Part shown: positions 1,694-21,210 of the stretch, in pieces | Position numbering within the stretch: position 1 is the first letter of the stretch | How the letters are laid out: each line of letters opens with the position of its first letter | Source: a phage | NCBI GenBank assembly: GCA_012690745.1 | Contig: GCA_012690745.1_4086.5 | Strand: one strand, 5' to 3' | Length of the DNA stretch: 21,210 nucleotides | The notes under the pieces: generated by a model | What the model was told of the DNA's origin: nothing | What the model saw: only the letters and a program-made list of their open reading frames with translations | The model's database searches: none | Made by a program: the position numbers and the translations under genes

Positions 1694-1700
1694 AGAAAAA

Positions 1701-1727
1701 AGGTTGGCTTATGCCAACCTTTTTTTA
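1701..1727 (+). terminator. intrinsic terminator (variant of the repeated hairpin module)
   Basis: aggttggc-ttat-gccaacct followed by a 6-T run, immediately after the sigma factor stop codon. Confidence 0.7.
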
Positions 1728-1747
1728 TGGGATGAAGTAAAAGTTTG

Positions 1748-4074: not shown

Positions 4075-4102
4075 TTGACATAAGATATCAGTACTGTATA
4101 AT
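4075..4102 (+). promoter_or_regulatory. sigma70-type promoter TTGACA-16-TATAAT
   Basis: TTGACA 4075..4080, spacer ending gtactg, TATAAT 4097..4102; same spacer-end motif as promoters at 8385 and 18736. Confidence 0.6.
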
Positions 4103-8168: not shown

Positions 8169-8401
8169 TACTAAGTTTTGTTGTTGCACTATTGTTTATG
8201 TTCTATCCTACACTAGTGGCATTAGCCACTAGACGAACGATGGTAGATCTCACTACTGTATTCTTGCTAAACGTGGCATTAGTACTGGTGTCTATTATCA
8301 TTCCAGTGAGCTTTACAGTTATTGATATTATTTCGGTATTACTCTTCGTGTTAAGTTATCTTATGCTTATTGAAGAAACAAATGTTGACAAACGTTCGTA
8401 G
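8159..8401 (+). CDS. small integral membrane protein
   Basis: AAGGTG upstream of ATG; almost entirely hydrophobic (two predicted TM helices). Confidence 0.6.
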   Translation: MYLVLSFVVALLFMFYPTLVALATRRTMVDLTTVFLLNVALVLVSIIIPVSFTVIDIISVLLFVLSYLMLIEETNVDKRS

Positions 8402-8412
8402 TACTGTATAAT
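8385..8412 (+). promoter_or_regulatory. sigma70-type promoter TTGACA-16-TATAAT
   Basis: TTGACA 8385..8390, spacer ending gtactg, TATAAT 8407..8412; overlaps the 3' end of the preceding gene. Confidence 0.6.
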
Positions 8413-9968: not shown

Positions 9969-10160
9969 ATGTTGATTTATCAAAGTGATAATATTCGTGT
10001 TATGCAGCATCCCTACTTACAAATCTTTGATGTGCAGCAGTATATGGAAGGTGATGACCCAAGAACCTATGGTCGTAAGTATGATTACTTCACTGTAAAG
10101 CAGTGTAAAAATATTAACGAAGTACGACAATTAGTTCAAGAACTTCAAAACAAAGGTTGA
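9969..10160 (+). CDS. hypothetical protein
   Basis: Track start 9915 overlaps upstream gene; in-frame ATG 9969 has AAGGA 8 nt upstream. The TGA stop lies inside the downstream terminator hairpin. Confidence 0.55.
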   Translation: MLIYQSDNIRVMQHPYLQIFDVQQYMEGDDPRTYGRKYDYFTVKQCKNINEVRQLVQELQNKG

Positions 10161-10186
10161 CTTCGGTCAGCCTTTTTTGTTATAAT
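10152..10186 (+). promoter_or_regulatory. terminator hairpin fused to promoter (repeated module, copy A)
   Basis: ggttgac-ttcg-gtcagcc stem-loop (10155..10172) plus T6; TTGACT inside the stem (10157..10162), 18-nt spacer, TATAAT 10181..10186. Confidence 0.7.
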
Positions 10187-10214
10187 TCTCTTAATAAATT
10201 AGAGGATTTTAATT

Positions 10215-10655
10215 ATGTATGTATATCGTTTTGAACTTAAATTTAGTTACATTGAACCTAACTTAGATCCTGCACGAACTGTAGGTCCGTTTGCACGGTA
10301 TTCAACCAGATACAGTACTAAAAATGGATTTGACCGTTTGCTTATGACTACACCTTCTCAATTCCAACCTGAACCAACTGAGGATGGGATCTATTTAATC
10401 AAAAGTGGATGGGTATTTGGCTGTCAAAGTTTGAAAGATTTGTTCAGATTCTTCACTATGGACTTGGGTAAATTGCATCGTGCTGGGTTTGCTATATCTG
10501 TATATGAAGTTCCAGACCACCATGTAGACATTGGTCGTAATCAGGTTCAGTACTATTGCGGTAGTGCTAAATTAGTTCGTATCATGTCAGTTAAGGAAGC
10601 AAAGGATGAGTTCCGACAAAGTAAAAGAGAAACACATGAGGTAATATATGGATAA
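10215..10655 (+). CDS. hypothetical protein
   Basis: GAGGA 7 nt upstream; 146 aa. Confidence 0.65.
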   Translation: MYVYRFELKFSYIEPNLDPARTVGPFARYSTRYSTKNGFDRLLMTTPSQFQPEPTEDGIYLIKSGWVFGCQSLKDLFRFFTMDLGKLHRAGFAISVYEVPDHHVDIGRNQVQYYCGSAKLVRIMSVKEAKDEFRQSKRETHEVIYG

Positions 10656-10992
10656 AACTCAAATAGAATTAAAGAAATTTGTTTCATTCTATCTTCCTGA
10701 TGACCCACGTAATTCACAAAAAGATATTGAATATTATAATATCCTATCTAAACAGTTAATGAGAAAGTTTCAACAGTGTTTAACTATATTCAATACAGAT
10801 GGAAGACGTAGATACCGAATCGTTTCAATGAATGATGAAAACGCAAATTTCTTTGATTACGATGTAGTTTTTAGAGCATATAATGATGATCGTATAAAAT
10901 TAAATTATGATCAAATTATACTTGACCTGAATGTTATATGTGTTATAATCACTCACGTAGCCGAACTTAATGGTTTTAAAGAATGGTATTGA
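10648..10992 (+). CDS. hypothetical protein
   Basis: Overlaps upstream stop by 8 nt; GAGGT upstream. Confidence 0.6.
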   Translation: MDKTQIELKKFVSFYLPDDPRNSQKDIEYYNILSKQLMRKFQQCLTIFNTDGRRRYRIVSMNDENANFFDYDVVFRAYNDDRIKLNYDQIILDLNVICVIITHVAELNGFKEWY

Positions 10993-11006
10993 ATAGAGGA
11001 TAACAT

Positions 11007-11273
11007 ATGAAGCTTAAATTACAATATAATGGATTTACTTTACGTAATGATACTGAATTTATTAATCGTTCTCCTGGTGCTGAACTGTTTTTACGAGAGA
11101 TGAACATTCCTTTCATCATTACTACAGTGGGCGACCGTGAAGTTCTACAATATGCAGAGCATCCGATTATTGATGTTCCTTGGTACTCTGAGCATATGTA
11201 CATGGATATGGCACGTCGCTACAACTGTAAGTTCGTAGTTGAAGGTGATAAAATTACAGTCGAATTTAAATAA
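11007..11273 (+). CDS. hypothetical protein
   Basis: GAGGA upstream of ATG; 88 aa. Confidence 0.6.
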   Translation: MKLKLQYNGFTLRNDTEFINRSPGAELFLREMNIPFIITTVGDREVLQYAEHPIIDVPWYSEHMYMDMARRYNCKFVVEGDKITVEFK

Positions 11274-11285
11274 GGTAAATTAAAA

Positions 11286-11579
11286 ATGATCAGTACTTCA
11301 GTTAATGAAAGCATCGTCGCTGACGTAGAAATGGTTAAAGAATGTGCAGATGAAACTCTTCGTGATATGTACATTAATGATTTAATTACTGAATACGGTA
11401 GTCGTGGTGTACACGAATTTATTCGTTTAAGTGGAGAGTTGATGAAAAATCGAATTCGTATGAAGCTTAACGTACATCCAAAAGCATGGGCATTTACATT
11501 AAAATACGCAGAAGATATTGTTAATTTGCGTCGAACTGAAGTATATGAACGTTTGCACAATGGTATGTTAGATAAATGA
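11286..11579 (+). CDS. hypothetical protein
   Basis: AAGG upstream; 97 aa. Confidence 0.6.
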   Translation: MISTSVNESIVADVEMVKECADETLRDMYINDLITEYGSRGVHEFIRLSGELMKNRIRMKLNVHPKAWAFTLKYAEDIVNLRRTEVYERLHNGMLDK

Positions 11580-11588
11580 TTGTAAAAT

Positions 11589-11618
11589 AGGAATTCTTAA
11601 ATGAATTCCTTTTTGTTT
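11589..11618 (+). terminator. intrinsic terminator
   Basis: aggaattc-ttaaat-gaattcct hairpin followed by tttttgttt. Confidence 0.6.
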
Positions 11619-11631
11619 ATAAGGTATAGTA

Positions 11632-11853
11632 ATGAAATATATAGTACTTGTACTGATATTATTCAGTACTGTTGTAAGTGCTAAACAAAAAGAATATGTT
11701 AAATGTATAAATTATGAAGAGAAATATGTTGAAACATATAAAAAAAGTATAATTAAAAACGTTTCGATTACTAACAGAGCAACAATCATTGTACTTAAAA
11801 ATGGGTTAATTATGCTATATAAACCACACGTTAAATGTGAAATTATTAATTGA
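11632..11853 (+). CDS. putative secreted small protein
   Basis: AAGG 7 nt upstream; MKYIVLVLILFSTVVSA signal peptide; very AT-rich. Confidence 0.55.
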   Translation: MKYIVLVLILFSTVVSAKQKEYVKCINYEEKYVETYKKSIIKNVSITNRATIIVLKNGLIMLYKPHVKCEIIN

Positions 11854-11860
11854 GGAAATT

Positions 11861-12433
11861 ATGAATCGTAAAGGTCGTTTTAAAGTATCAAAAAAGAACA
11901 AAAGTTCTAGGTTTAAACCTATTGTTTTAACAGTTAAATCTAACAAAGATTTAACTGCACTTAGTAAAAAGATAATTTCATCTAAGATTGAAGTATCATA
12001 CGTAAATTCATTAAAATATATGAATGTTAAACCACTGGACCAACTCATTTCACTTATATTTGAACGTAATGATTTTGAGATATCAGTAGATGATTATAGA
12101 GCCTATAATGCTGGTTTCATTAATGTTACTTGTAATAAAAAACTAACTGAGTTGGAAAATTTGTCATGTATAATAAATCTAGATAAAGGTGTTGTGAAGT
12201 ACCATTTTGTACATTTCACTAATATCAATAATGGAATGGGTGTACAATCCAGACCTATAGTGCCTACGTGTGATGTTACTAAATTAGCAAAGCTCAATGA
12301 TGAAGAATATTTTCAAGAAAGCATTGTAACTGAGCATTTAGATGATATAATAGCTACTTACAAAGAATGCATATGGGTGTTGAATGCTATAAAACCTAAA
12401 TTGTGTTTAATGAATATTGTTCGTGATTTATGA
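11861..12433 (+). CDS. hypothetical protein
   Basis: Track start 11837 overlaps upstream gene; ATG 11861 follows GAGGA. Lys-rich N-terminus; very AT-rich. Confidence 0.6.
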   Translation: MNRKGRFKVSKKNKSSRFKPIVLTVKSNKDLTALSKKIISSKIEVSYVNSLKYMNVKPLDQLISLIFERNDFEISVDDYRAYNAGFINVTCNKKLTELENLSCIINLDKGVVKYHFVHFTNINNGMGVQSRPIVPTCDVTKLAKLNDEEYFQESIVTEHLDDIIATYKECIWVLNAIKPKLCLMNIVRDL

Positions 12434-12446
12434 ATGGGGAATCGTA

Positions 12447-12890
12447 ATGAGTTGGGTAAATGTTAATAGTATTGAACTTAACGAACAAGATATTTTTGCA
12501 TTTGTAAATTTAACTAATAACACAGTACTAAAAGGGCGTTTGTTCAGTGCTAGTGATGGGTACAAATGGATCTCTTTGATGGATGATAGTGGTGTGATTT
12601 ATAATGTAATGCAATTACCCCAATGGGTATATAGTAACACTGCTGACGATGTTCTTACCGCAGTTATGCGTGAGTTTGAAAAACTCCCAGGTGGTGATAT
12701 CAAAAACAAAGTTTTTAATGCAGAACGTAAAAATTATACAGCACAGCAATTGGAATCCCTTGCCATTGCTGCTTATCAAGCTGCTATTAAGAAGCCAGAG
12801 TGCGTTATTCTTAAGTATGTACCAGACTTAAAACTTACGTTGGAAGACATGGATGCATTCATTTTTACATCTGAACTTGATCAGTACTAA
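12447..12890 (+). CDS. hypothetical protein
   Basis: Track start 12417 overlaps upstream gene; ATG 12447 has GGGGA 6 nt upstream. Confidence 0.6.
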   Translation: MSWVNVNSIELNEQDIFAFVNLTNNTVLKGRLFSASDGYKWISLMDDSGVIYNVMQLPQWVYSNTADDVLTAVMREFEKLPGGDIKNKVFNAERKNYTAQQLESLAIAAYQAAIKKPECVILKYVPDLKLTLEDMDAFIFTSELDQY

Positions 12891-12918
12891 TTTAACTTTG
12901 GGACAACCATTCTTATTA

Positions 12919-12927
12919 TGATATAAT
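12919..12927 (+). promoter_or_regulatory. extended -10 promoter (TGaTATAAT)
   Basis: tgaTATAAT at 12919..12927. Confidence 0.4.
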
Positions 12928-12961
12928 GTTTTATGTCATTCGATATAAATGACAACGGAAC

Positions 12962-12969
12962 TATAAATA
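12962..12969 (+). promoter_or_regulatory. T4-type late promoter box TATAAATA
   Basis: Exact TATAAATA 37 nt upstream of ATG 13006; one of only two exact copies in the window. Confidence 0.55.
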
Positions 12970-13005
12970 TTATAGTAAAATTTATCTCTTATAGGAGTTA
13001 TAAAA

Positions 13006-13389
13006 ATGGTTGATAAATGGAATAAGAAAGATCCATCACATGATGTTGATATTTCTGGTCTAGACAATGCACATAAGCACAAGTATCTAGATTCACTAGG
13101 TCTTCTAAAACCAGACCAAAGTCTTGCACATGATCGTCCATCCCGTGAAAAAGCATTTAGCCTAGAATCACTAGGTCATGAGCTTAATCGTGTGTTTGAG
13201 GATCACCCAATCTATGTACGTGATATTATCGAGAAACTTAAAGTAACTCCTAAAGAGCACTTTAAAGCAACTGTACACTCTGCATTCCGTGCATTACATG
13301 AATCTCTAAAGAAAACTCACAATCTTCGTAAAATTCATGATGAAATCGTGAATGCAATCGAAAGTGAAAAACATAAGTTCAAGAAGTAA
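13006..13389 (+). CDS. hypothetical protein, paralog of the N-terminal region of the 13635 product; candidate late (virion-associated) protein
   Basis: AGGAG 8 nt upstream. Shares KYLDSLGLLKPDQ and …IIEKLKVTPKEHFKATVHSAFRAL with 13635 (RYVNSLGLLNATQ; …IVKELQSVPKEELKVKAQAVLDAM). Confidence 0.7.
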   Translation: MVDKWNKKDPSHDVDISGLDNAHKHKYLDSLGLLKPDQSLAHDRPSREKAFSLESLGHELNRVFEDHPIYVRDIIEKLKVTPKEHFKATVHSAFRALHESLKKTHNLRKIHDEIVNAIESEKHKFKK

Positions 13390-13391
13390 TA

Positions 13392-13428
13392 AAAAGGGTT
13401 GACTAAGGTCAGCCCTTTGTTGTATCAT
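13392..13428 (+). promoter_or_regulatory. terminator hairpin fused to promoter (repeated module, copy B, variant loop)
   Basis: gggttgac-taag-gtcagccc (13396..13415) plus T-rich tail; TTGACT 13399..13404, 18-nt spacer, TATCAT 13423..13428. Confidence 0.6.
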
Positions 13429-13457
13429 AACTTCTCAATATAACTGAGGTATCATAT

Positions 13458-13571
13458 ATGCAAGGTTTAAAATTTGTAGTTGCTGCACTCATCGCCGCAG
13501 TACTGGTTGGTGGTGTATTCTATGTAGTGGATCAAAAAGTAAATCCACCTGCACAAGAACAATCTAAGTAA
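13458..13571 (+). CDS. candidate 37-aa single-TM peptide
   Basis: GAGG 7 nt upstream of ATG; MQGLKFVVAALIAAVLVGGVFYVV… ; sits alone between module copies B and C. Below the ORF-track size cutoff. Confidence 0.4.
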   Translation: MQGLKFVVAALIAAVLVGGVFYVVDQKVNPPAQEQSK

Positions 13572-13579
13572 CAAAATAA

Positions 13580-13617
13580 GGTTGACTTCGGTCAGCCTTT
13601 TCTTTATACTATAAATA
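13580..13617 (+). promoter_or_regulatory. terminator hairpin fused to promoter (copy C) overlapping a TATAAATA late box
   Basis: ggttgac-ttcg-gtcagcc (13580..13597) plus T-rich run; TTGACT 13583..13588; exact TATAAATA at 13610..13617. Confidence 0.65.
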
Positions 13618-13634
13618 TAGACATAGAGAAAAAA

Positions 13635-14912
13635 ATGAAATCTATGGAGAGAAATCAAATGCCAAGTAATTTTACTGATAAAAATGGTGGTAACATGGCT
13701 GGTCACTCTGATAAATGGAGTGAACGCAACCGCCGTCCAAATAGTTATCAAGCAGGTCAAGGTTCACGTGGATCACGTAACCAAGGAACTGGTCTAGCTG
13801 GTAAAGCAAACGCAGAAGCAGGTGAAGTTAAGAGTACTGAGAACATGACTGAGCTAGAAAAGCTACGTTATGTTAATTCATTGGGACTTCTTAATGCTAC
13901 ACAAAAACAACGCCTAGCTGATATGGAACGTGAAGAAAAAGAAAAATCTGCTCCTGCTAAAGAAGAACCAAAACAAGAAGCACCAAAGGCGGTTAACCCT
14001 GTCAAAGAACTGTCGGATAAGTTAGGTAAGATTTTTGCTAATAAACCACAACTTATCCAAGGTATTGTGAAAGAATTGCAATCTGTACCTAAAGAAGAAT
14101 TAAAAGTCAAAGCACAAGCTGTGCTTGATGCAATGAGTGGAAATACCAGTACTGAACCAACTGAAGTATTCAGTACTATAATGCGTGCACTTGAAGGTAC
14201 GCAACAAGGTGATGTGCCTGCACAAGAGGAAGTAAGTCTTGAAAGCGTACTTAAAACATTTGATAGTATTGGTAAAGAAGACCGTGCTAATGCTCAACAA
14301 GTTAAGAATGTACTAGCTAAGTTAGAAAACCGTCTGGAAGGTAAAGACGATAAGATTAAATTAGTATCTGATGCAGTTAACGATGCACTTAAATCTTATG
14401 TACAAGGTGAAAAGAGTCGTTTTGTAACTGCAATGGATGCTGCATTCAATACTATGAAAAAGTATGAAGCTGATCATGGTGAGAAGGTTACACGAGATGG
14501 TTATCTGATGCGTGATGATGAAGAAGGTGCAGTAGAACAGAACGATGTTCATTCAGACGAAGAAATTGATGACATGGAAGCTGAACTGTCACAAGACCGC
14601 CAAATGACTGAAAAATCCCATAACGAACTACAGAAATTAATGCAATGGGTTGCAGATGTTGGTGAAAAAGCTGGTGCTGATAAGAAGAGTATAAACCGAA
14701 ATCTTAGTTGGATTAAAGATAAAGTTGGTAACAACGCTCGTAAACTACAAAAAGCGTGGACTGATGTAGTGAATGGTGCTGTTGATATTGATGTTGAATC
14801 CGGTGAGGCATATGATTATGCATTGACTACACTTGATGACTCTTTCCGTGATTACGAAAATGGAAATGTAACTCCTTGGGAAAAGGACATCATGAGCAAA
14901 TACGGTAAATGA
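13635..14912 (+). CDS. hypothetical 425-aa protein with Gly/Ser/Arg-rich, probably disordered N-terminus; candidate late (virion-associated) protein
   Basis: Longest ORF in the window; preceded by a TATAAATA late box; N-terminal region paralogous to 13006; acidic, Lys/Glu-rich central part. Confidence 0.75.
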   Translation: MKSMERNQMPSNFTDKNGGNMAGHSDKWSERNRRPNSYQAGQGSRGSRNQGTGLAGKANAEAGEVKSTENMTELEKLRYVNSLGLLNATQKQRLADMEREEKEKSAPAKEEPKQEAPKAVNPVKELSDKLGKIFANKPQLIQGIVKELQSVPKEELKVKAQAVLDAMSGNTSTEPTEVFSTIMRALEGTQQGDVPAQEEVSLESVLKTFDSIGKEDRANAQQVKNVLAKLENRLEGKDDKIKLVSDAVNDALKSYVQGEKSRFVTAMDAAFNTMKKYEADHGEKVTRDGYLMRDDEEGAVEQNDVHSDEEIDDMEAELSQDRQMTEKSHNELQKLMQWVADVGEKAGADKKSINRNLSWIKDKVGNNARKLQKAWTDVVNGAVDIDVESGEAYDYALTTLDDSFRDYENGNVTPWEKDIMSKYGK

Positions 14913-14920
14913 TAAAACAA

Positions 14921-14954
14921 AAGGTTGACTTCGGTCAGCCTTTTTTTGTAAATA
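14921..14954 (+). promoter_or_regulatory. terminator hairpin fused to promoter (copy D)
   Basis: ggttgac-ttcg-gtcagcc (14923..14940) plus T7; TTGACT 14925..14930; weak -10 TAAATA 14949..14954. Confidence 0.65.
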
Positions 14955-14983
14955 CAAAAGAGGAATTAAGAAGAGGGATTACA

Positions 14984-15235
14984 ATGAAAAAATATATTAT
15001 ATTTGGAATTGTATTATTTTCCAGTACTGCTTATGGTGCAGATTATCATTGCTCCGTAGCAAGGCAGGATTTCAGAAATGGGGAGTTCTATACTACCTCA
15101 TACACAAAAGGAATAATACACGACACCGACAGAACTATTGGATTTAATGCGTTTGACAACAAAGATTCATATACTTCAGGTATACTATCTGAGCGTAAGA
15201 CTGATGTAATGGGAATAGAAAAAGAGTTCCGGTGA
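14984..15235 (+). CDS. putative secreted protein
   Basis: Track ORF 14909 reads through the hairpin; in-frame ATG 14984 has GAGGG 6 nt upstream; MKKYIIFGIVLFSSTAYGADY signal peptide. Confidence 0.6.
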   Translation: MKKYIIFGIVLFSSTAYGADYHCSVARQDFRNGEFYTTSYTKGIIHDTDRTIGFNAFDNKDSYTSGILSERKTDVMGIEKEFR

Positions 15236-15245
15236 TTCAGTAGCA

Positions 15246-15569
15246 ATGTGTAATGACATTGAAAGTACTAAAACAATTTATTATAATAATGAACGTAACT
15301 ATCGTTTTCATAATTTAACCACAAATAAAAGTTTACTATTTTACAATTGTAAAGAAGTAATACTCCCATCAGACAATAGCTGTACTCCAACTAATCAACC
15401 CCCAGCACAATGTAATACTCCCTCTGAACCTGATAAAAATAAAAAAGACAAAGATAAAGATAAAAAAGAAGACAAAAAACCTTTAAAAGATAAAAAGAAA
15501 GATAAAAAACATAATCCGTTTAAAAATAATAAACAAGCACAACCCGATATGACGTGTAAAATAAAATAA
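15246..15569 (+). CDS. hypothetical protein with Lys/Asp-rich low-complexity tail
   Basis: Only a weak SD (GGTGA); C-terminal DKNKKDKDKDKKEDKKPLKDKKKDKKHNP encoded by a simple aaagat-type DNA repeat (about 15430..15510). Confidence 0.4.
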   Translation: MCNDIESTKTIYYNNERNYRFHNLTTNKSLLFYNCKEVILPSDNSCTPTNQPPAQCNTPSEPDKNKKDKDKDKKEDKKPLKDKKKDKKHNPFKNNKQAQPDMTCKIK

Positions 15570-15578
15570 GGATATATA

Positions 15579-15998
15579 ATGAAAAAGATTTTTTTAAGTA
15601 TTATTTTAGTACTTTTTAGTTTTAATGTATATGCAGCAGATGCTAAACAGGTTGCAAATACAGTAAAAGATGTTATAGTAGATAATGCTCCTACATTAGA
15701 GGAAATTGGGGTAAAAACTTGTGATATAGTAATATATAATTTAGTTAATGATGAACGAGTTATGTTGAATACGTATGAACAAGTAGTCCCATTGGTTGAA
15801 TCTGGTGATGCTTTTAGCTTTACATATAAAGTTAAATTAACAGGAGGGGTTGAAGTTAATCTTGACATTGATACCGCTTCAGTACTAAAAGATAAACTAG
15901 GATATGTGTTCAATCGTATTCGTGAAGAAGGTCATCTTAAGTATGTTTATGAAAGTAAAATACTAAAACGTGCAATAGTTATAGAAAACTGTAAATGA
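15579..15998 (+). CDS. putative secreted protein
   Basis: AAGGA 7 nt upstream; MKKIFLSIILVLFSFNVYAADA signal peptide. Confidence 0.65.
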   Translation: MKKIFLSIILVLFSFNVYAADAKQVANTVKDVIVDNAPTLEEIGVKTCDIVIYNLVNDERVMLNTYEQVVPLVESGDAFSFTYKVKLTGGVEVNLDIDTASVLKDKLGYVFNRIREEGHLKYVYESKILKRAIVIENCK

Positions 15999-16006
15999 TA
16001 ATAAAA

Positions 16007-16039
16007 GGGTTGACTTCGGTCAGCCTTTTTTGTTATGAT
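16007..16039 (+). promoter_or_regulatory. terminator hairpin fused to promoter (copy E)
   Basis: gggttgac-ttcg-gtcagcc (16007..16025) plus T6; TTGACT 16010..16015, 18-nt spacer, TATGAT 16034..16039. Confidence 0.7.
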
Positions 16040-16067
16040 GTTGGTATTAACTACAGAGGATAAAGTA

Positions 16068-16709
16068 ATGACTAAGCAAGACATATTCAAAACTTTAATT
16101 GACATTTTGCGTCCATCAAAAACTCGTTGTGCGATGGAGTTTGATATTCCTTATGCTGAACGCGTAATCTTTCCACAAGTTAAAGCTGCTGGACTTACTT
16201 TGCTTGGAATGGGGATGTACTCTGTAGTAGTTGAACATAAAAACTATCCTGGGCGTGCATTTAAAGTAACCACTTCACGCTGGGATGGTTTTCGTGCTTA
16301 TGCAAAGTACTGCATTGAAAACGCAGGAACCAAGTTTCTTCCAGTGATCTACAGTGCAAACGAACAAGGAAACTTTGGATGGTATGAGATGGACAAGTAC
16401 TATCCTATAATTAAACAAAAAAATAATTATGATGACTTTGTTAGTACTAAAATTGGAGATTTATATTCTTATGCACATGCTGGTCAGTACGCTACTTCAG
16501 TGAATGATATGCGTGGAAATTCTGAAGAGATTGCTATTGCGACGGTCGCTGCTAACATCATGAAAGAGTTTCACGGGCGTTTTGTACCAGACATTCATTC
16601 CAGTAATGTCATGATGGATAAAGATGGCAATGTATTCATTACTGATCCTCTTTCGTGTGATGTACGTAGAGAAATACCAGTTACTGAAGAAGATCCAGTT
16701 TTTTATTGA
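16068..16709 (+). CDS. protein-kinase-like (atypical kinase fold) protein
   Basis: Track start 16035 lies inside the -10 box; ATG 16068 has GAGGA 7 nt upstream. Gly-rich loop LLGMGMYSVVV, candidate beta3 Lys in RAFKV, catalytic-loop-like VPDIHSSNVMMD and DFG-like ITD in canonical order. Confidence 0.65.
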   Translation: MTKQDIFKTLIDILRPSKTRCAMEFDIPYAERVIFPQVKAAGLTLLGMGMYSVVVEHKNYPGRAFKVTTSRWDGFRAYAKYCIENAGTKFLPVIYSANEQGNFGWYEMDKYYPIIKQKNNYDDFVSTKIGDLYSYAHAGQYATSVNDMRGNSEEIAIATVAANIMKEFHGRFVPDIHSSNVMMDKDGNVFITDPLSCDVRREIPVTEEDPVFY

Positions 16710-16770
16710 CAGAACTGATGTTCTGGTGTATTCTTAATAAACCATAAAAATTGCGGTAAAGGATAAAATC

Positions 16771-17052
16771 ATGCGTTCATTTGAAAACTTAATAGGTAAG
16801 CATCTTTTATCTGAAATTGATGCAGACGTTAAAGAATTATCCAAATCAAAAAGTTACATTCATTTGGATGAACTGTTTATTAAGTACGGTGAGATTGGTT
16901 TTAAGTCATTATTTGTTTTTACTATGAAAGTACATAGTTTAAAGTACTTCGATTTGAGTGCTAAAGATGGTGAACCGAATCTATATTACATGTATTACCT
17001 TAAGAACAAAGATGAAGCTAATACATTACTCTCTGAATATATATTGGGGTAA
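16771..17052 (+). CDS. hypothetical protein
   Basis: AAAGGA 7 nt upstream; 93 aa. Confidence 0.6.
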   Translation: MRSFENLIGKHLLSEIDADVKELSKSKSYIHLDELFIKYGEIGFKSLFVFTMKVHSLKYFDLSAKDGEPNLYYMYYLKNKDEANTLLSEYILG

Positions 17053-17054
17053 AA

Positions 17055-17393
17055 ATGGAACAATATTTTGAATTAATAAACAAAGTATCATTTTATGTAG
17101 TATCTTTGGTTTGGGTGTATTATATGTTTTGCTACATTATTGCATTCTTCCGATACACTACTTTATATGAACGTATCTACTATGATGCCCCAATTTCATT
17201 CTTGATGTTTTGTGCATGTACGTGGGGAATATTAGAAGTACTGATATGTGGGTATAGTACTGATGAATTAAATCTGGTATCGGTCTTGACTGGGTTTTCA
17301 TTTGTTGTTATGATAGCTGCCGTTCCAGTATGGTTGTTCTTTGGACTAGTTCATCGCATTGATATATGGCGTTCTAATATCCCTGAAAAGTAA
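17055..17393 (+). CDS. small membrane protein, tandem paralog 1 of 3
   Basis: Three hydrophobic segments; shares FRYTTLYERIY and C-terminal R…NIPEK with the two following ORFs. Confidence 0.6.
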   Translation: MEQYFELINKVSFYVVSLVWVYYMFCYIIAFFRYTTLYERIYYDAPISFLMFCACTWGILEVLICGYSTDELNLVSVLTGFSFVVMIAAVPVWLFFGLVHRIDIWRSNIPEK

Positions 17394-17402
17394 GGATTGG
17401 TA

Positions 17403-17744
17403 ATGATTTATTACACTAACATGTTTGCCTATGCTGTTGCTTGCATTTACATTGTGTACTTCTTATTCGGTGGAGTACTGTGCTTCTTTAAGTACAAAAC
17501 GTTGTTCAACCGAATGTACCCAAATCATCCAATTGTAGTTGTACTTTTGATTCTTTCAGTTTCTCAAATAATCGTTGAAACTACAATGGGTATCAGTAGT
17601 GTACATTATAGTTTTGGTACTATAGTAATTATTACTATGCTTATTGCATACATTTTAGTACTTGGATATGGTATCTTTGGTAATATTGGTATGAAAATGT
17701 ATCATCGAATTAAAACATTACGTGATAATCTACCGGAGCGTTGA
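17403..17744 (+). CDS. small membrane protein, tandem paralog 2 of 3
   Basis: Track start 17397 is TTG; ATG 17403 has AAGGA 6 nt upstream. FKYKTLFNRMY and C-terminal LRDNLPER. Confidence 0.6.
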   Translation: MIYYTNMFAYAVACIYIVYFLFGGVLCFFKYKTLFNRMYPNHPIVVVLLILSVSQIIVETTMGISSVHYSFGTIVIITMLIAYILVLGYGIFGNIGMKMYHRIKTLRDNLPER

Positions 17745-17745
17745 T

Positions 17746-18090
17746 ATGTATAATTTGAACCTAATCTCATATATTATAACAACACTGTTTACATTCTATG
17801 CCTTTGTTGGTATAATCCTACTGTACTTTAAATTTTATAAAGTGTTTAACCGTTTCTATCCTTCAATGGAGAATGAGTTTTTCTTTGTGTTGTACGTAGG
17901 TTACACATTAATGGCTACATGTTTCACTGTAGCCGATGGTGTCATCGGCATTAAAACTGATTCCCCAAATGGTAGTACGCTGGTTGCATTTATTCTTACT
18001 GGATTCCTTGCAACTTATATAGCCTTCATTACAACATGGTCAGTGGTTGAATTTCTCTTGCGACTACGAACGAATATGCCGAATCGATAG
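17746..18090 (+). CDS. small membrane protein, tandem paralog 3 of 3
   Basis: Track start 17722 is GTG inside the previous gene; ATG 17746 has GGAG 7 nt upstream. FKFYKVFNRFY and C-terminal LRTNMPNR. Confidence 0.6.
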   Translation: MYNLNLISYIITTLFTFYAFVGIILLYFKFYKVFNRFYPSMENEFFFVLYVGYTLMATCFTVADGVIGIKTDSPNGSTLVAFILTGFLATYIAFITTWSVVEFLLRLRTNMPNR

Positions 18091-18099
18091 GAGACATAT

Positions 18100-18354
18100 A
18101 TGTTTGCGTTGCGTAATAAAAACACTAAAGAATTATTATGTATTGATACCGTATGGGATTGTGCGGGGTCAACTACAGTTCTTGAAGAAGGAACTGGATA
18201 TTGCGTGTTTGTTGTACATGATAGGAATGAACTCGAATTATTACTTGCTGAGTTCAATGCTGGTGGTAATCCTAACAGTACTGAATACCCTGAGATTATC
18301 AATCCAGCACCACCAGGCTCTTATGAAATTCTACAACTGTGGGAGTTGAAGTAA
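18100..18354 (+). CDS. hypothetical protein
   Basis: AGGAG 6 nt upstream; 84 aa. Confidence 0.6.
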   Translation: MFALRNKNTKELLCIDTVWDCAGSTTVLEEGTGYCVFVVHDRNELELLLAEFNAGGNPNSTEYPEIINPAPPGSYEILQLWELK

Positions 18355-18734
18355 TGCGTCAAATGCACAAAGTAACCGAGCTAAACAAGCGTCTGGTTAA
18401 ACAATCAATGTTCGAGGATAAAGAGTCTTATTATAACTTTAAACGTGCAGTAGAGGCTGCTATCCACATTCAGAAGCTTAAAGAACGTGGTTGTATTATT
18501 CTGGAAAATGGTTCGGAAGTTGTAACGGATGACTTTAGTGTAGCGTTTGATGTTTCACCTGACGGGACGCTATCAATGCCCCGCTTAGGAACTGGAAACA
18601 TGACTGTTTGGGTTGGCTTCACTATGGGGAATGTACCTGGTACTGTGTACGTAGATGATGCGGAATTGAAAGACAGTTTCAAAAACTTATCTTATCTTGA
18701 ACCACAATACGCACATGAAATGAATTTATTTTGA
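18354..18734 (+). CDS. hypothetical protein
   Basis: Track start 18339 overlaps upstream gene; TAATG-coupled ATG at 18354 preferred. Confidence 0.55.
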   Translation: MRQMHKVTELNKRLVKQSMFEDKESYYNFKRAVEAAIHIQKLKERGCIILENGSEVVTDDFSVAFDVSPDGTLSMPRLGTGNMTVWVGFTMGNVPGTVYVDDAELKDSFKNLSYLEPQYAHEMNLF

Positions 18735-18735
18735 G

Positions 18736-18763
18736 TTGACAAACACATTCTGTACTGTATAAT
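18736..18763 (+). promoter_or_regulatory. sigma70-type promoter TTGACA-16-TATAAT
   Basis: TTGACA 18736..18741, spacer ending gtactg, TATAAT 18758..18763; followed by a 7-bp leader hairpin gggatga/tcatccc at 18776..18794. Confidence 0.6.
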
Positions 18764-18812
18764 GCTTATCAAGGGGGGATGAACTTCTCATCCCTACAAT
18801 CGAGGAACTACC

Positions 18813-19367
18813 ATGATTACTTTTAAGAAAACTGCTAACCACATCCATGAAATCTACATTAACGGTCACAAAGCTGGCCTTCTTCGTTTACTCGCCCATC
18901 ACCCTGATGCTACCGTATCTGATAATGAACCTAAAGATTGGCGTGTATTTTTCTTTGGAAAGTACAGTGATTTTCAAGTATCAAACCTGAAGAACATTCG
19001 TTCAGTATGCACGTTAACTGAAATTAAAGAAAAGTTAGCACAAGCATTGAAAACTAATCCAGATGGTGTTCTTCCACCTGATAACTTTGTAGAGAAAGGT
19101 TATGCCTTAGCTCATTTCAAAGATGGTACTATTCAATCTATCAGTACTGAATATGAATATCATTGGACTGAGTACTTCACTTATGGTTCGAGTAATACAT
19201 TGATGGATTCACGTAGTAAATTGGAAGAAGTACTGACTCGTATGAATGAACGCGAGCGTCAGTTATATGACAAACCAGAAATGTGGAGTTCAACTTACAT
19301 TGACCGTATTGACTATGTTATTATGACTCCAATCTTTGACACTGCTTACTATGATTCTTTGAAATAA
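18813..19367 (+). CDS. hypothetical protein
   Basis: GAGGA 6 nt upstream; 184 aa. Confidence 0.65.
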   Translation: MITFKKTANHIHEIYINGHKAGLLRLLAHHPDATVSDNEPKDWRVFFFGKYSDFQVSNLKNIRSVCTLTEIKEKLAQALKTNPDGVLPPDNFVEKGYALAHFKDGTIQSISTEYEYHWTEYFTYGSSNTLMDSRSKLEEVLTRMNERERQLYDKPEMWSSTYIDRIDYVIMTPIFDTAYYDSLK

Positions 19368-19378
19368 GGATAACTTAT

Positions 19379-19555
19379 ATGAAACTACGTACTCGTAATC
19401 GACTGATGGATGCACTGTACCATGAACAGCTTTCACTGAATGAAGTGAAGCGTCAGTTAATGTACACATATCAGTTTCCCGCTCGCATTGCAAAACAACA
19501 TGCTAAAGAATTGCTGAAAGAAGCAATCGAGTACTGGGAATCTGATTCATACTAA
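19379..19555 (+). CDS. hypothetical 58-aa basic, helical protein
   Basis: AAGGA 8 nt upstream of ATG 19379; MKLRTRNRLMDALYHEQLSLNEVKRQL… ; below the ORF-track size cutoff. Confidence 0.45.
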   Translation: MKLRTRNRLMDALYHEQLSLNEVKRQLMYTYQFPARIAKQHAKELLKEAIEYWESDSY

Positions 19556-19559
19556 TATT

Positions 19560-19931
19560 ATGAATATAGATTTGAAAGGTGCAACCCGAACTGTTATCCT
19601 CATTGGGGAATACGCTATCAAGATTCCAACCTTCAAAAGCTGGAAGCTATTCTTAACAGGGATGATAGCTAACCTCAATGAACGTTCGTGGATGCAGTAC
19701 TCCAATCGTAGTGATAGTAGTATCTGTCCTACGTTGTGGTCATCATGTACTGGACTAGTAACTGTACAGAAACGTTGTAAGCCAGTGCATCATAGGGGTT
19801 TATTTTGGGTGGAGTTGTGTGCTTTAGCATTGAATTCAGAGTTAAGTACTGACTTCTTCTATTCAGATGCGAAGCCAGAAAACTTTGGGTATCTGGGTGG
19901 TAAGTTAGTTAAACTTGATTATGGAGATTAA
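19560..19931 (+). CDS. minimal protein-kinase-like protein (N-lobe plus catalytic loop, ends at DYG)
   Basis: VILIGEYAIKIP (beta3 Lys-like), DAKPENFGY (cf. HRDLKPEN) and KLVKLDYGD (DFG-like) in order, but the ORF stops just after DYG; weak SD. Confidence 0.55.
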   Translation: MNIDLKGATRTVILIGEYAIKIPTFKSWKLFLTGMIANLNERSWMQYSNRSDSSICPTLWSSCTGLVTVQKRCKPVHHRGLFWVELCALALNSELSTDFFYSDAKPENFGYLGGKLVKLDYGD

Positions 19932-19932
19932 T

Positions 19933-20202
19933 ATGTACGCACTGTATAATAAAGAAAAGAAACGATTTGCTAAGGTTGAAATTTCGATTGATACATTTGA
20001 TATGTTGGAGTACTGTATTGTAACGGACCTATATGCTAACTTGTATTACGTTCTTGATGACGTATCAGTACTGCAACGATTGCTTGAGAATTCCAAAAGT
20101 CAATGCCAAGGCATCCATGATGGTTCATCTTATGAAACACCTGAGTGTTCCTACGGCTATCTGGACGGGTATGAGATTGTGAAGTTGGGGATTGTTGAAT
20201 AA
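19933..20202 (+). CDS. hypothetical protein
   Basis: Track start 19915 is TTG; ATG 19933 has GGAG 6 nt upstream and follows the upstream stop by 1 nt. Confidence 0.55.
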   Translation: MYALYNKEKKRFAKVEISIDTFDMLEYCIVTDLYANLYYVLDDVSVLQRLLENSKSQCQGIHDGSSYETPECSYGYLDGYEIVKLGIVE

Positions 20203-20295
20203 ATGGATTAAACAATGAAGAAGTGTATGATTCTTTGTTCTAATCACCATCGCATGGTACATTCTGGTAGACTATGTTTGATTGAAAGAAAAAAA

Positions 20296-20328
20296 GGGTT
20301 GACTTCAGTCGGCCCTTTTTGCTATAAT
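20296..20328 (+). promoter_or_regulatory. terminator hairpin fused to promoter (copy F, degenerate stem)
   Basis: gggttgac-ttca-gtcggccc with two G-U pairs plus T5; TTGACT 20299..20304, 18-nt spacer, TATAAT 20323..20328. Confidence 0.65.
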
Positions 20329-20356
20329 CATTTCATCGAAACGAGAGGATGAATAC

Positions 20357-20833
20357 ATGACACGCATTAACTTAGTACACGTTAAAGAACTTGCTGACCA
20401 ACATCTGATGGCTGAATATCGTGAACTCCCACGTGTATTTGGTGCTGTACAAAAACACGTTCAAGCACGTAAGCGTGTACGTGATTTCAAAATTAACAGT
20501 ACTTATCTGTTAGGTTCAGGTCATGTAACATTTTTCTACGACAAGTTACTGTACTTACAGAAGCGTCATATTGATATTGTCAACGAATGTCTGCGTCGTG
20601 GTATGAAGATTCAAAACACTGAAGTAAACGACATTAGCGGCTTCCCTGCTGAGTTTTGTAATGACTACGTACCAACGGAGTCAGAGATTAAAATGTCTCG
20701 TGACCGTTTGATTGAGAAGCTCCAGATGAAGCCTACGTGGTATAAGTTTACTGATGTTGAATGTCCACAGTACGTTAAAGATATGTTGAATGAAATTGAA
20801 GAACAAATCAAAGATGAAATGAATAACTATTAA
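20357..20833 (+). CDS. denV: pyrimidine-dimer DNA glycosylase / AP lyase (T4 endonuclease V homolog)
   Basis: [35 protein letters not shown]…RVRDFKI…[10 protein letters not shown]…PTWYK matches the T4 DenV sequence as I recall it, including N-terminal Thr2 and Glu23; GAGGA upstream. Confidence 0.9.
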
Positions 20834-20840
20834 AGGAAAA

Positions 20841-20872
20841 GGTTGACTTCGGTCAGCCTTTTTTGCTATAAT
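20841..20872 (+). promoter_or_regulatory. terminator hairpin fused to promoter (copy G)
   Basis: ggttgac-ttcg-gtcagcc (20841..20858) plus T6; TTGACT 20843..20848, 18-nt spacer, TATAAT 20867..20872. Confidence 0.7.
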
Positions 20873-20914
20873 TATTTTATAGAAATTAAAGTACTAAATT
20901 GGAGTTTTTAATTA

Positions 20915-21210
20915 ATGCCAGCTAAAAAAACAACTGAACAATTCATTAAAGACGCAAAAGAAAAAAGAACTGACATTGATTTTGATTATAGTAAAGTTAA
21001 TTATATTAATTCTTTTACAAAAGTAACTATTATTGATCCTGAATTTGGTGAGTTTGATATTACACCCAATCACTTTTTAAGTGGTAGTGGGCATCCTATC
21101 CGTGGTGGTTCATCTAAAAAAACAACAGAACAATTTATTAAAGAAGCAAAAGAAAAGAGATCTGACATTGATTTTGATTATAGCAAAGTTAATTATATTA
21201 ATACTAAAAC
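20915..21210 (+). CDS. hypothetical protein with tandemly repeated ~30-aa module (partial, continues past window)
   Basis: GGAG upstream of ATG 20915; KKTTEQFIKDAKEKRTDIDFDYSKVNYIN recurs as KKTTEQFIKEAKEKRSDIDFDYSKVNYIN 64 codons later; open at window end. Confidence 0.6.
   Translation, partial: MPAKKTTEQFIKDAKEKRTDIDFDYSKVNYINSFTKVTIIDPEFGEFDITPNHFLSGSGHPIRGGSSKKTTEQFIKEAKEKRSDIDFDYSKVNYINTK
20921..21202 (+). repeat. direct repeat, two ~90-bp copies (20921..21010 and 21113..21202) within the partial ORF
   Basis: The two copies are about 90% identical at DNA level, period 192 bp, in frame. Confidence 0.8.

Follow-up and report, generated by a model that had tools for sequence, protein, structure and literature searches.

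The window analysed here is a stretch of 21,210 nt of phage DNA (assembly GCA_012690745.1, contig GCA_012690745.1_4086.5) with all genes on the plus strand. Its right half shows 99.4% identity over 97% to Escherichia phage JP4, and the window is 97–99% identical to phAPEC6, slurp01, G17, 121Q, and PBECO4, all of them Asteriusvirus jumbo myophages with genomes of about 350–370 kb; judged by this similarity, it is DNA of an Asteriusvirus (121Q/PBECO4-type, RaK2/121Q-like) jumbo coliphage. T4-like traits of the group include a late sigma factor, TATAAATA late promoters, and UvsX/UvsY-like genes. Scans of the window for Rfam families and tRNAs gave no match. We describe a repeated intergenic module of about 60 nt, in which the stem of a terminator-like hairpin carries the predicted −35 box of a promoter for the next gene. 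The module is built around an 18-nt core, GGTTGACTTCGGTCAGCC; its copies (A–G), the genes enclosed between them, and a loose relative are given below, with −35 and −10 denoting predicted promoter hexamers.

10147–10197, plus strand: copy A; A-run, core 10155–10172, −35 TTGACT 10157–10162, T-run spacer, TGT and −10 TATAAT 10181–10186.
13389–13439, plus strand: copy B; core 13397–13414 with loop TAAG and a GGG/CCC clamp, −35 13399–13404, −10 TATCAT 13423–13428.
13458–13571, plus strand: 37-codon gene for a hydrophobic peptide (PHROG 35037), with copies B and C on either side.
13572–13622, plus strand: copy C; core 13580–13597, −35 13582–13587, 17-nt spacer, −10 TATACT 13605–13610.
14915–14965, plus strand: copy D; core 14923–14940, run of seven T, no −10 (TTTTTTTGTAAATAC).
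14984–15998, plus strand: three-gene cassette (83, 107, and 139 amino acids), with copies D and E as flanks.
16000–16050, plus strand: copy E; core 16008–16025, −35 16010–16015, TGT and −10 TATGAT 16034–16039.
20289–20339, plus strand: copy F; core 20297–20314 with loop TTCA and two G·U pairs, −35 20299–20304, TGC and −10 TATAAT 20323–20328.
20833–20883, plus strand: copy G; core 20841–20858, −35 20843–20848, TGC and −10 TATAAT 20867–20872.
1694–1744, plus strand: loose relative; hairpin GGTTGGC-TTAT-GCCAACC 1702–1719 (core GGTTGGCTTATGCCAACC) and T-run, directly 3' of the sigma-factor gene 728–1693.

A first-pass annotation of the same sequence had reported eight near-identical terminator hairpins, at seven sites and as a divergent copy at 1701. 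The repeat itself is confirmed: a pattern search of the window finds the core exactly at 10155, 13580, 14923, 16008, and 20841, and with two mismatches each at 13397 and 20297, all seven on the plus strand, with no match in 100 shuffles. A separate repeat search recovers the same family as 51-nt units and adds the divergent unit at 1694–1744 (61% identity). The latter lacks both TTGAC and a −10 at 16–19 nt, so that it does not stand as a full copy; its 5' arm has an A-to-G change compensated in the 3' arm, and it is most simply an ordinary terminator. By sequence, the family has seven members, six of them promoter-like, and one loose relative.

The shared layout consists of one or two stop codons in an A-rich tract, with an A-run ahead of the stem, followed by GG(G)TTGAC, a 4-nt loop, GTCAGCC(C), and 5–7 T; in copies A, E, F, and G the T-run leads to TGn and TATAAT or TATGAT exactly 18 nt from TTGACT. 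GAGG and an ATG follow about 20–30 nt beyond the −10. Copies stay similar for about 12 nt beyond the −10 (CATTTCATCAAC/CATCGAAAC). A stop codon lies 8–11 nt ahead of the hairpin or inside it, and the hairpin ends about 43 nt (range 38–47 nt) before the ATG; distances from stop codon to hairpin to ATG are equal around the counterpart elements in RaK2, KVP40, and uncultured or metagenomic contigs. Two other sources of the repeat were considered and rejected: a mobile element resembling miniature inverted-repeat transposable elements (there are no target duplications, a single orientation, and a single position relative to genes), and tandem gene duplication (similarity is confined to the intergenic 50–60 nt, and the flanking genes are unrelated).

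Three details given by the first-pass annotation hold. The TGA stop codon (10158–10160) of gene 9969–10160 lies inside the TTGAC/−35 of copy A, the next gene starting at 10215; copies B and C enclose the 37-codon gene; and the −10 of copy C is overlapped by a T4-type late-promoter box, TATAAATA, at 13610–13617, upstream of virion structural gene 13635–14912. Copy B follows virion structural gene 13006–13389 and has a shorter T-run (CCCTTTGTTG). Downstream of copies E and F are a protein kinase gene (16068–16709, PHROG 15752) and a pyrimidine-dimer glycosylase gene (20357–20833), respectively. The window has only two TATAAATA boxes, at 12962–12969 and 13610–13617, each about 18–37 nt upstream of a PHROGs virion structural gene (13006–13389 and 13635–14912, respectively), which fits T4-type late promoters within an otherwise early-looking region. 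The gene after copy G (open reading frame from about 20905, running off the window end) contains two 95-nt units, 92% identical and 192 nt apart, within 20919–21205, and its Turkey3 homologue, annotated as DUF4379, has at least five units of this type; from these repeats, it is a repeat-containing protein of variable length.

The stem comprises 7 bp including one G·U pair, extended by flanking A-U to 9–10 pairs in folds and to as many as 13 in related copies. The loop is TTCG in five of the seven copies, TAAG in one, and TTCA in one, and a T-run follows. Plus-strand RNA folds at −12.4 to −15.4 kcal/mol (z from −4.3 to −5.7; 0/200 shuffles as good), compared with only −7.9 kcal/mol for the complementary strand of copies A and F, the two folded, because the plus-strand G·U becomes A·C. 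The 51 unique copies from relatives have GTCAGCC, GTCAACC, or GTCGGCC as their 3' arm, i.e., A and G alternate opposite two U's; the loop varies as TTCG, TAAG, TTCA, TACG, TTCT, TTTG, and TCCG; and the outer pairs covary (G-C, A-T, T-A, C-G). This covariation comes from search patterns that fix the inner stem and is informative only at the outer pairs and the R positions; within these limits the variation is that of an RNA stem read from the plus strand, not of a DNA palindrome.

The same data bear on a reading of the inverted repeat at the level of DNA and not of RNA structure, either as an operator bound by a dimeric regulator of phage or host origin or as a cruciform. A near-palindrome overlapping a promoter is indeed common to many operators, and Arbiol et al. 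speculated about a protein binding the stem of a comparable element, the promoter early stem-loop (PeSL) of T4-type phages (PMC2839356). Here, however, the imperfection of the repeat is RNA-like (G·U on the plus strand gives A·C on the other strand), loops and outer stem bases vary with pairing kept, a T-run always follows, and the position is right after stop codons; we consider an operator or cruciform very improbable.

The first-pass reading of the hairpins as intrinsic terminators is supported, as far as sequence analysis goes, by these strand-specific folds, the T-runs, and the sites right after stop codons, and also by independent terminator annotation at these sites in the G17, UE-S1, and GAP32 records (by ARNOLD in G17 and GAP32). 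A GC-rich stem, a short loop, a U-tract, and a post-coding site are all present, with a weaker U-tract in copy B. The modules share with intrinsic terminators in general the GC-clamped stem, stable tetraloop, U-tract, and location just after stop codons, and differ from ordinary JP4 terminators in having one common stem sequence, TTGAC in the 5' arm, and a coupled −10. The other terminator-like hairpins of JP4, about 100, mostly have unrelated stems; to judge from their sequences, the module hairpins are not the general terminator of this phage.

On the promoter side, five copies have the form TTGACT-N18-TATAAT/TATGAT/TATCAT and one the form N17-TATACT. The 18-nt distance between TTGACT and a TATAAT-like hexamer, attributed by the first-pass annotation to the repeat as such, therefore holds for copies A, B, E, F, and G; it is 17 nt in copy C, and copy D has no −10 at a sensible spacing. 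Four of the five 18-nt copies (A, E, F, and G) have TGT or TGC before the −10, as in extended −10 promoters, where TGn usually makes up for a long spacer. The state of copy D without a −10 is kept in G17, JP4, SD-1_S14, Turkey3, fEgEco12, UB, and SHEFM2K, and by its sequence copy D looks like a terminator only.

That the −10 is coupled to this hairpin can be assessed against other hairpins. In JP4, a −10 (at least 5/6 of TATAAT at 17–18 nt, mostly with TGn) is found behind 14/15 family hairpins and behind 21/113 other terminator-like hairpins (P = 1.7e-8), in agreement with the first-pass proposal that the stem carries the −35 of the next promoter. In IMG/VR, 77 of the 108 unique cores have at least 5/6 of TATAAT at 16–18 nt, vs. 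a background of 4.5% at positions drawn at random from that DNA. Bacterial genomes (596 Gb) contain the identical 18-mer 50 times, with 17 expected by chance; about 18 of these occurrences are plain terminators (Acinetobacter, Exiguobacterium, Vibrio, Bacteroidetes), and a −10 follows the hairpin in 2/50 only. An A lies 7 nt past the −10 in 75% of 194 unique elements and a pyrimidine comes before it in 81%, as is typical of start sites; transcription is predicted to start there. Judged by these four sequence controls, the −10 behind the hairpins is more than an AT-rich accident. In copies from Asteriusvirus relatives TTGAC is invariant. For Yersinia phage fHe-Yen9-03, the database entry places −35 and −10 signals on the equivalent element; existing records label the element with one function or the other, terminator or promoter, and none gives it the two together. 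The predicted leader start after copy F, (C)ATCGAAAC(G)A at 20329–20345, is common to Vibrio KVP40-like phages and several uncultured jumbo contigs; leader starts of the ATCGAAAC type are found in 19/194 unique elements, and other copies have the related CATCAAC.

If the copies were intrinsic terminators only, their promoter likeness would be a by-product of the AT-rich tail and a chance TTGAC stem. The G17, UE-S1, and GAP32 records, which annotate terminators only, agree with this, as do copy D and the 1702 copy, both without a −10, the bacterial examples of the identical hairpin as a plain terminator, and the presence of a −10-like hexamer near 19% of unrelated JP4 terminators. The explanation is nevertheless unlikely, given how strongly the −10 follows family hairpins as compared with both the other JP4 hairpins and the identical bacterial ones, the fixed 17–18-nt spacing, the TGn, the A conserved where transcription should begin, and the invariance of TTGAC in the Asteriusvirus copies while the 3' arm varies, set against its compensated change in the promoter-less 1702 copy.

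Modules in JP4 are confined to two regions: eight full copies and a half copy lie at 84.7–98.5 kb, i.e., in the region of the window plus 4 kb, and four variants, all on the plus strand, lie in the terminal repeat of about 20 kb. Variant forms in the terminal repeat include GTGGTTGAC...GTCAGCCAT and GGGATTGAC-TCCG-GTCAGTCCC, the latter followed by TTTGC-TATTAT at 17 nt. As two tandem copies of the terminal repeat stand mid-sequence in the JP4 record (123.9–144.0 kb and 144.0–164.1 kb), element counts in it are doubled. Fuzzy and structure-based scans of the whole JP4 genome found no family copies in the structural or replication modules. The genome-wide motif scan proposed by the first-pass annotation thus finds copies in relatives, but the family is confined to about 14 kb and the terminal-repeat variants, and a genome-wide repeat, which had been expected, is rejected. 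A second, separate repeated unit, GCCAGTACTTGATACTGGC with a T-run and AAATATAGTATAAT, is present on the minus strand of JP4 at 103–117 kb between about a dozen paralogous RCC1-like genes, and was probably carried along by tandem gene duplication.

We also compared the window with nine relatives; breakpoints from SD-1_S14 were excluded from the statistics, because its record shows many frameshift-like splits, possibly assembly errors. Phages ph0011 and UE-S1 exactly lack 13431–13565 (the 37-codon gene, between copies B and C) and 14947–15984 (three genes, between copies D and E). At each deletion, the alignments on its two sides share 40–49 nt on a single hybrid hairpin, whose upstream flank is that of the first copy and whose downstream flank is that of the second. 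The interval between copies B and C has four states: empty, the 37-codon gene, three genes (Turkey3, fEgEco12), or a gene for 258 amino acids (UB). At copy F, ph0011 has a 3.4-kb insertion of four genes, including an N6-adenine methyltransferase gene, with a module copy at each end. This insertion has no other match among 50,697 phage records and, for that reason, cannot show movement between sites. Homology to JP4, G17, UB, and UE-S1 ends inside the hairpin of copy G (20853–20855), leaving a half hairpin, GGTTGACTTCGGTTACAC. The comparison of cassette content among relatives, suggested as a check by the first-pass annotation, accordingly shows contents that differ at modules (B–C, D–E, F, and G).

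Overall, 10/22 breakpoint ends fall within the module footprint, 5% of the sequence (P = 3.6e-8). When only intergenic junctions are considered, 10/16 ends lie on the 7/27 junctions that bear modules (P = 0.002), and breakpoints are seen at 6/7 module junctions and 5/20 others (P = 0.009). The ends of insertions and deletions (indels) and of mosaic segments in relatives thus coincide with the copies, consistent with the first-pass view of the repeats as natural recombination substrates. JP4 encodes UvsX- and UvsY-like proteins, and T4-style recombination on short homologies is plausible.

Could the modules be terminator–promoters that are not recombination substrates, with the boundaries set by the constraint that viable changes be intergenic, or by breaks made by homing endonucleases? 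An HNH gene lies directly upstream of copy F in JP4, ph0011, and fEgEco12, another homing endonuclease gene precedes the JP4 copy at 98525, and several indels lie away from hairpins. Against this stand the overlap on a single hybrid hairpin in ph0011 and UE-S1, which is the signature of repeat-to-repeat recombination, the half hairpin at the copy G boundary, the excess that persists at intergenic junctions only, and the recombination of the PeSLs of phage RB49 into circles (PMC2839356). We attach little likelihood to this alternative.

Two further observations concern the same intervals. Positions 20215–20352 are a remnant of an HNH endonuclease gene, of which 320 bp were lost in the window at an 8-bp microhomology (20221–20228); the full 414-bp gene, with its TGA stop inside copy F, is present in JP4, ph0011, and fEgEco12, and the gene is absent in G17 and UE-S1. 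An unrelated terminator-like hairpin at 11589–11610 (AGGAATTC-TTAAAT-GAATTCCT and a T-run) lies inside the interval replaced in ph0011 and UE-S1 (11271/11332–11844), about 135 nt before the Turkey3/fEgEco12 breakpoint at 11744; therefore, other intergenic elements may also mark exchange points.

The first-pass annotation had likened the repeats to the stem-loop cassettes of T4-type phages, and the comparison is apt (PMC2839356, PMC4122927). In RB49 and phi1, each PeSL unit recurs between genes and joins an AT-rich tract, a near-consensus sigma-70 promoter, a stem-loop, and a Shine–Dalgarno sequence with ATG; the stem-loop mostly lies over the −10 or between it and the −35; activity as promoter and as terminator was seen with lacZ fusions; and inverse PCR detected circles from recombination of neighbouring units, with crossovers in the stem-loop, one of them in the loop (PMC2839356). 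PeSLs were later extended to PST/T4 and nt-1/KVP40, with half elements at indel boundaries (PMC4122927).

The modules described here likewise combine, in an intergenic repeat, an AT-rich tract, a promoter, a terminator stem-loop, a Shine–Dalgarno sequence, and ATG. A stop codon lies next to or in the hairpin, the A-run and stem follow, and GAGG and ATG lie downstream; the predicted stem-loop is stable and holds the −35 within its stem, an overlap of stem-loop and promoter of the kind already described for RB49. Like PeSLs, they are concentrated among small accessory genes (in JP4, in plastic small-gene regions), and they are tied to sites where close relatives differ by an insertion, deletion, or replacement, some of these boundaries bearing degraded half elements. 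The element also fits the nt-1 stem consensus, A3-4G3-loop-C3T3-4, a likeness that extends to that consensus as worded in the text (PMC4122927), and KVP40-like genomes contain the identical core.

There are also differences from PeSLs: the −35 is in the 5' arm, with an 18-nt spacer and a TGn-extended −10; the family is small (8–9 copies and four variants per genome, in two regions); and the modules are known from sequence, whereas in RB49 activity and mini-circles were measured. PeSLs have been described in Straboviridae and the present phage is an Asteriusvirus, which is a taxonomic limit of published descriptions and not a mechanistic criterion. The literature search for PeSLs yielded two papers only, both on T4-type phages, and in the literature searched we found no report of PeSL-type elements in RaK2/121Q-like phages. 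The papers on RaK2, fEgEco12, Sharanji, and UE-S1 do not mention the repeats, neither promoters nor terminators come up in those on RaK2, Sharanji, and UE-S1, and the CBB paper gives promoters and terminators in separate lists.

Within the same phage, the modules can be compared with the main early promoters (TTGACA-N16-TATAAT, with AGTACTG before the −10), to which most strong JP4 promoters belong. Both have sigma-70 hexamers ahead of small early-type genes, but the main early promoters have no hairpin, a 16-nt spacer, and another conserved spacer motif, and are mostly in the terminal repeat. Perfect TTGACA-N16-TATAAT promoters in the window are at 4075–4102, 8385–8412, and 18736–18763, with the common spacer end GTACTG. 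The gene upstream of the 1702 hairpin (728–1693) encodes a phage sigma-70-family factor (PHROG 351, E = 5e-60), which could be the reader of one of the two promoter families. The palindrome AGTACT, also part of the main early promoter spacer and of another terminator family, is found at 66 places in the window vs. 6.5 expected, with no shuffle as high (e.g., at 403, 4090, 8400, 13499, and 20890), and 1,048 times in JP4, 8.4 times the composition expectation; no other palindromic hexamer comes near this over-representation. Its density is highest in the terminal-repeat region, and most of its sites are intragenic.

The explanation that we consider probable is that the copies are compact PeSL-type terminator–promoter modules of about 60 nt that also serve cassette recombination. 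As RNA, the hairpin AAA-GG(G)TTGAC-TTCG-GTCAGCC(C)-UUUUUU with its U-tract would terminate transcription of the gene before it. In double-stranded DNA, these bases would also make up a sigma-70-type promoter: the A-run would serve as its AT-rich upstream part, TTGACT of the 5' arm as the −35, the 3' arm with the T-run as the 18-nt spacer, and TGn-TATAAT as the extended −10. Transcription would start at the conserved A about 7 nt past the −10, some 20–30 nt ahead of the Shine–Dalgarno sequence and ATG. As a module lies on each flank, each gene or gene group would be an insulated, self-expressed cassette. Given near-identical direct repeats of 27–50 bp and UvsX/UvsY-like genes, homologous recombination between modules may delete, insert, or swap whole cassettes, leaving genes and regulation intact. 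We infer the sigma factor used and the recombination pathway from these features.

Several points weigh against this explanation. The 18-nt spacer exceeds the sigma-70 optimum and the −35 is only 5/6. Dual function is not uniform: copy D has no −10, copy C has a weaker one lying under a late promoter, and copy B has a weak T-run. Termination and initiation at the modules are themselves what we infer, with statistical support. Some breakpoint ends, kept outside the statistics, come from SD-1_S14 with its possible assembly errors, and a number of indels are not at hairpins (11271–11857, 15355–16757, 16748, 19556, and the HNH gene at 20203–20281). Finally, viable indels must be intergenic, which inflates the association; the tests restricted to junctions are weaker, yet significant.

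Two extensions of terminator–promoter modules can be envisaged, which we regard as unlikely. In the first, RNA polymerase would be handed over on the module: RNA release in the U-tract, which is also the promoter spacer, would leave the polymerase on the next promoter, where it would re-initiate without leaving the DNA, so that expression of successive cassettes would be coupled and their transcripts separate. In the second, the common 18-nt core would be a linker through which different phage families exchange ready-to-express cassettes. The core and the leader start ATCGAAAC are found in large phages unrelated to one another: Asteriusvirus, RaK2, GAP32, CBB, Eneladusvirus, KVP40-like Schizotequatrovirus, and many uncultured contigs of 350–420 kb. 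Convergent evolution of the core is the simpler alternative to a shared linker, given that the same hairpin has also arisen in bacteria, as a plain terminator.

Generally, the element shows every sequence feature that defines PeSLs and appears to be of that type, differing in its phage group, in having the −35 within the 5' arm, and in a family that is small and local; as far as sequence comparison goes, cassette shuffling has good comparative support and the dual transcription function has statistical support. The composite of hairpin and promoter is also found outside Asteriusvirus, in RaK2, GAP32, CBB, Eneladusvirus, Serratia and Erwinia jumbo phages, KVP40-like Schizotequatrovirus, and many large contigs of uncultured origin; a −35 within a terminator stem is common in large phages and rare in bacterial chromosomes. 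The PeSL mechanism would be extended to RaK2/121Q-like jumbo phages. The weight of the finding would grow if the overlap couples termination to re-initiation, or if the core mediates exchange between families. In phage engineering, the 60-nt module may provide a natural insulated landing pad for gene insertion. Most genes of these 350-kb phages are small open reading frames of unknown function; the modules would mark their exact entry and exit points, and give a simple rule for spotting recently acquired cassettes, e.g., the 3.4-kb methyltransferase insertion of ph0011.

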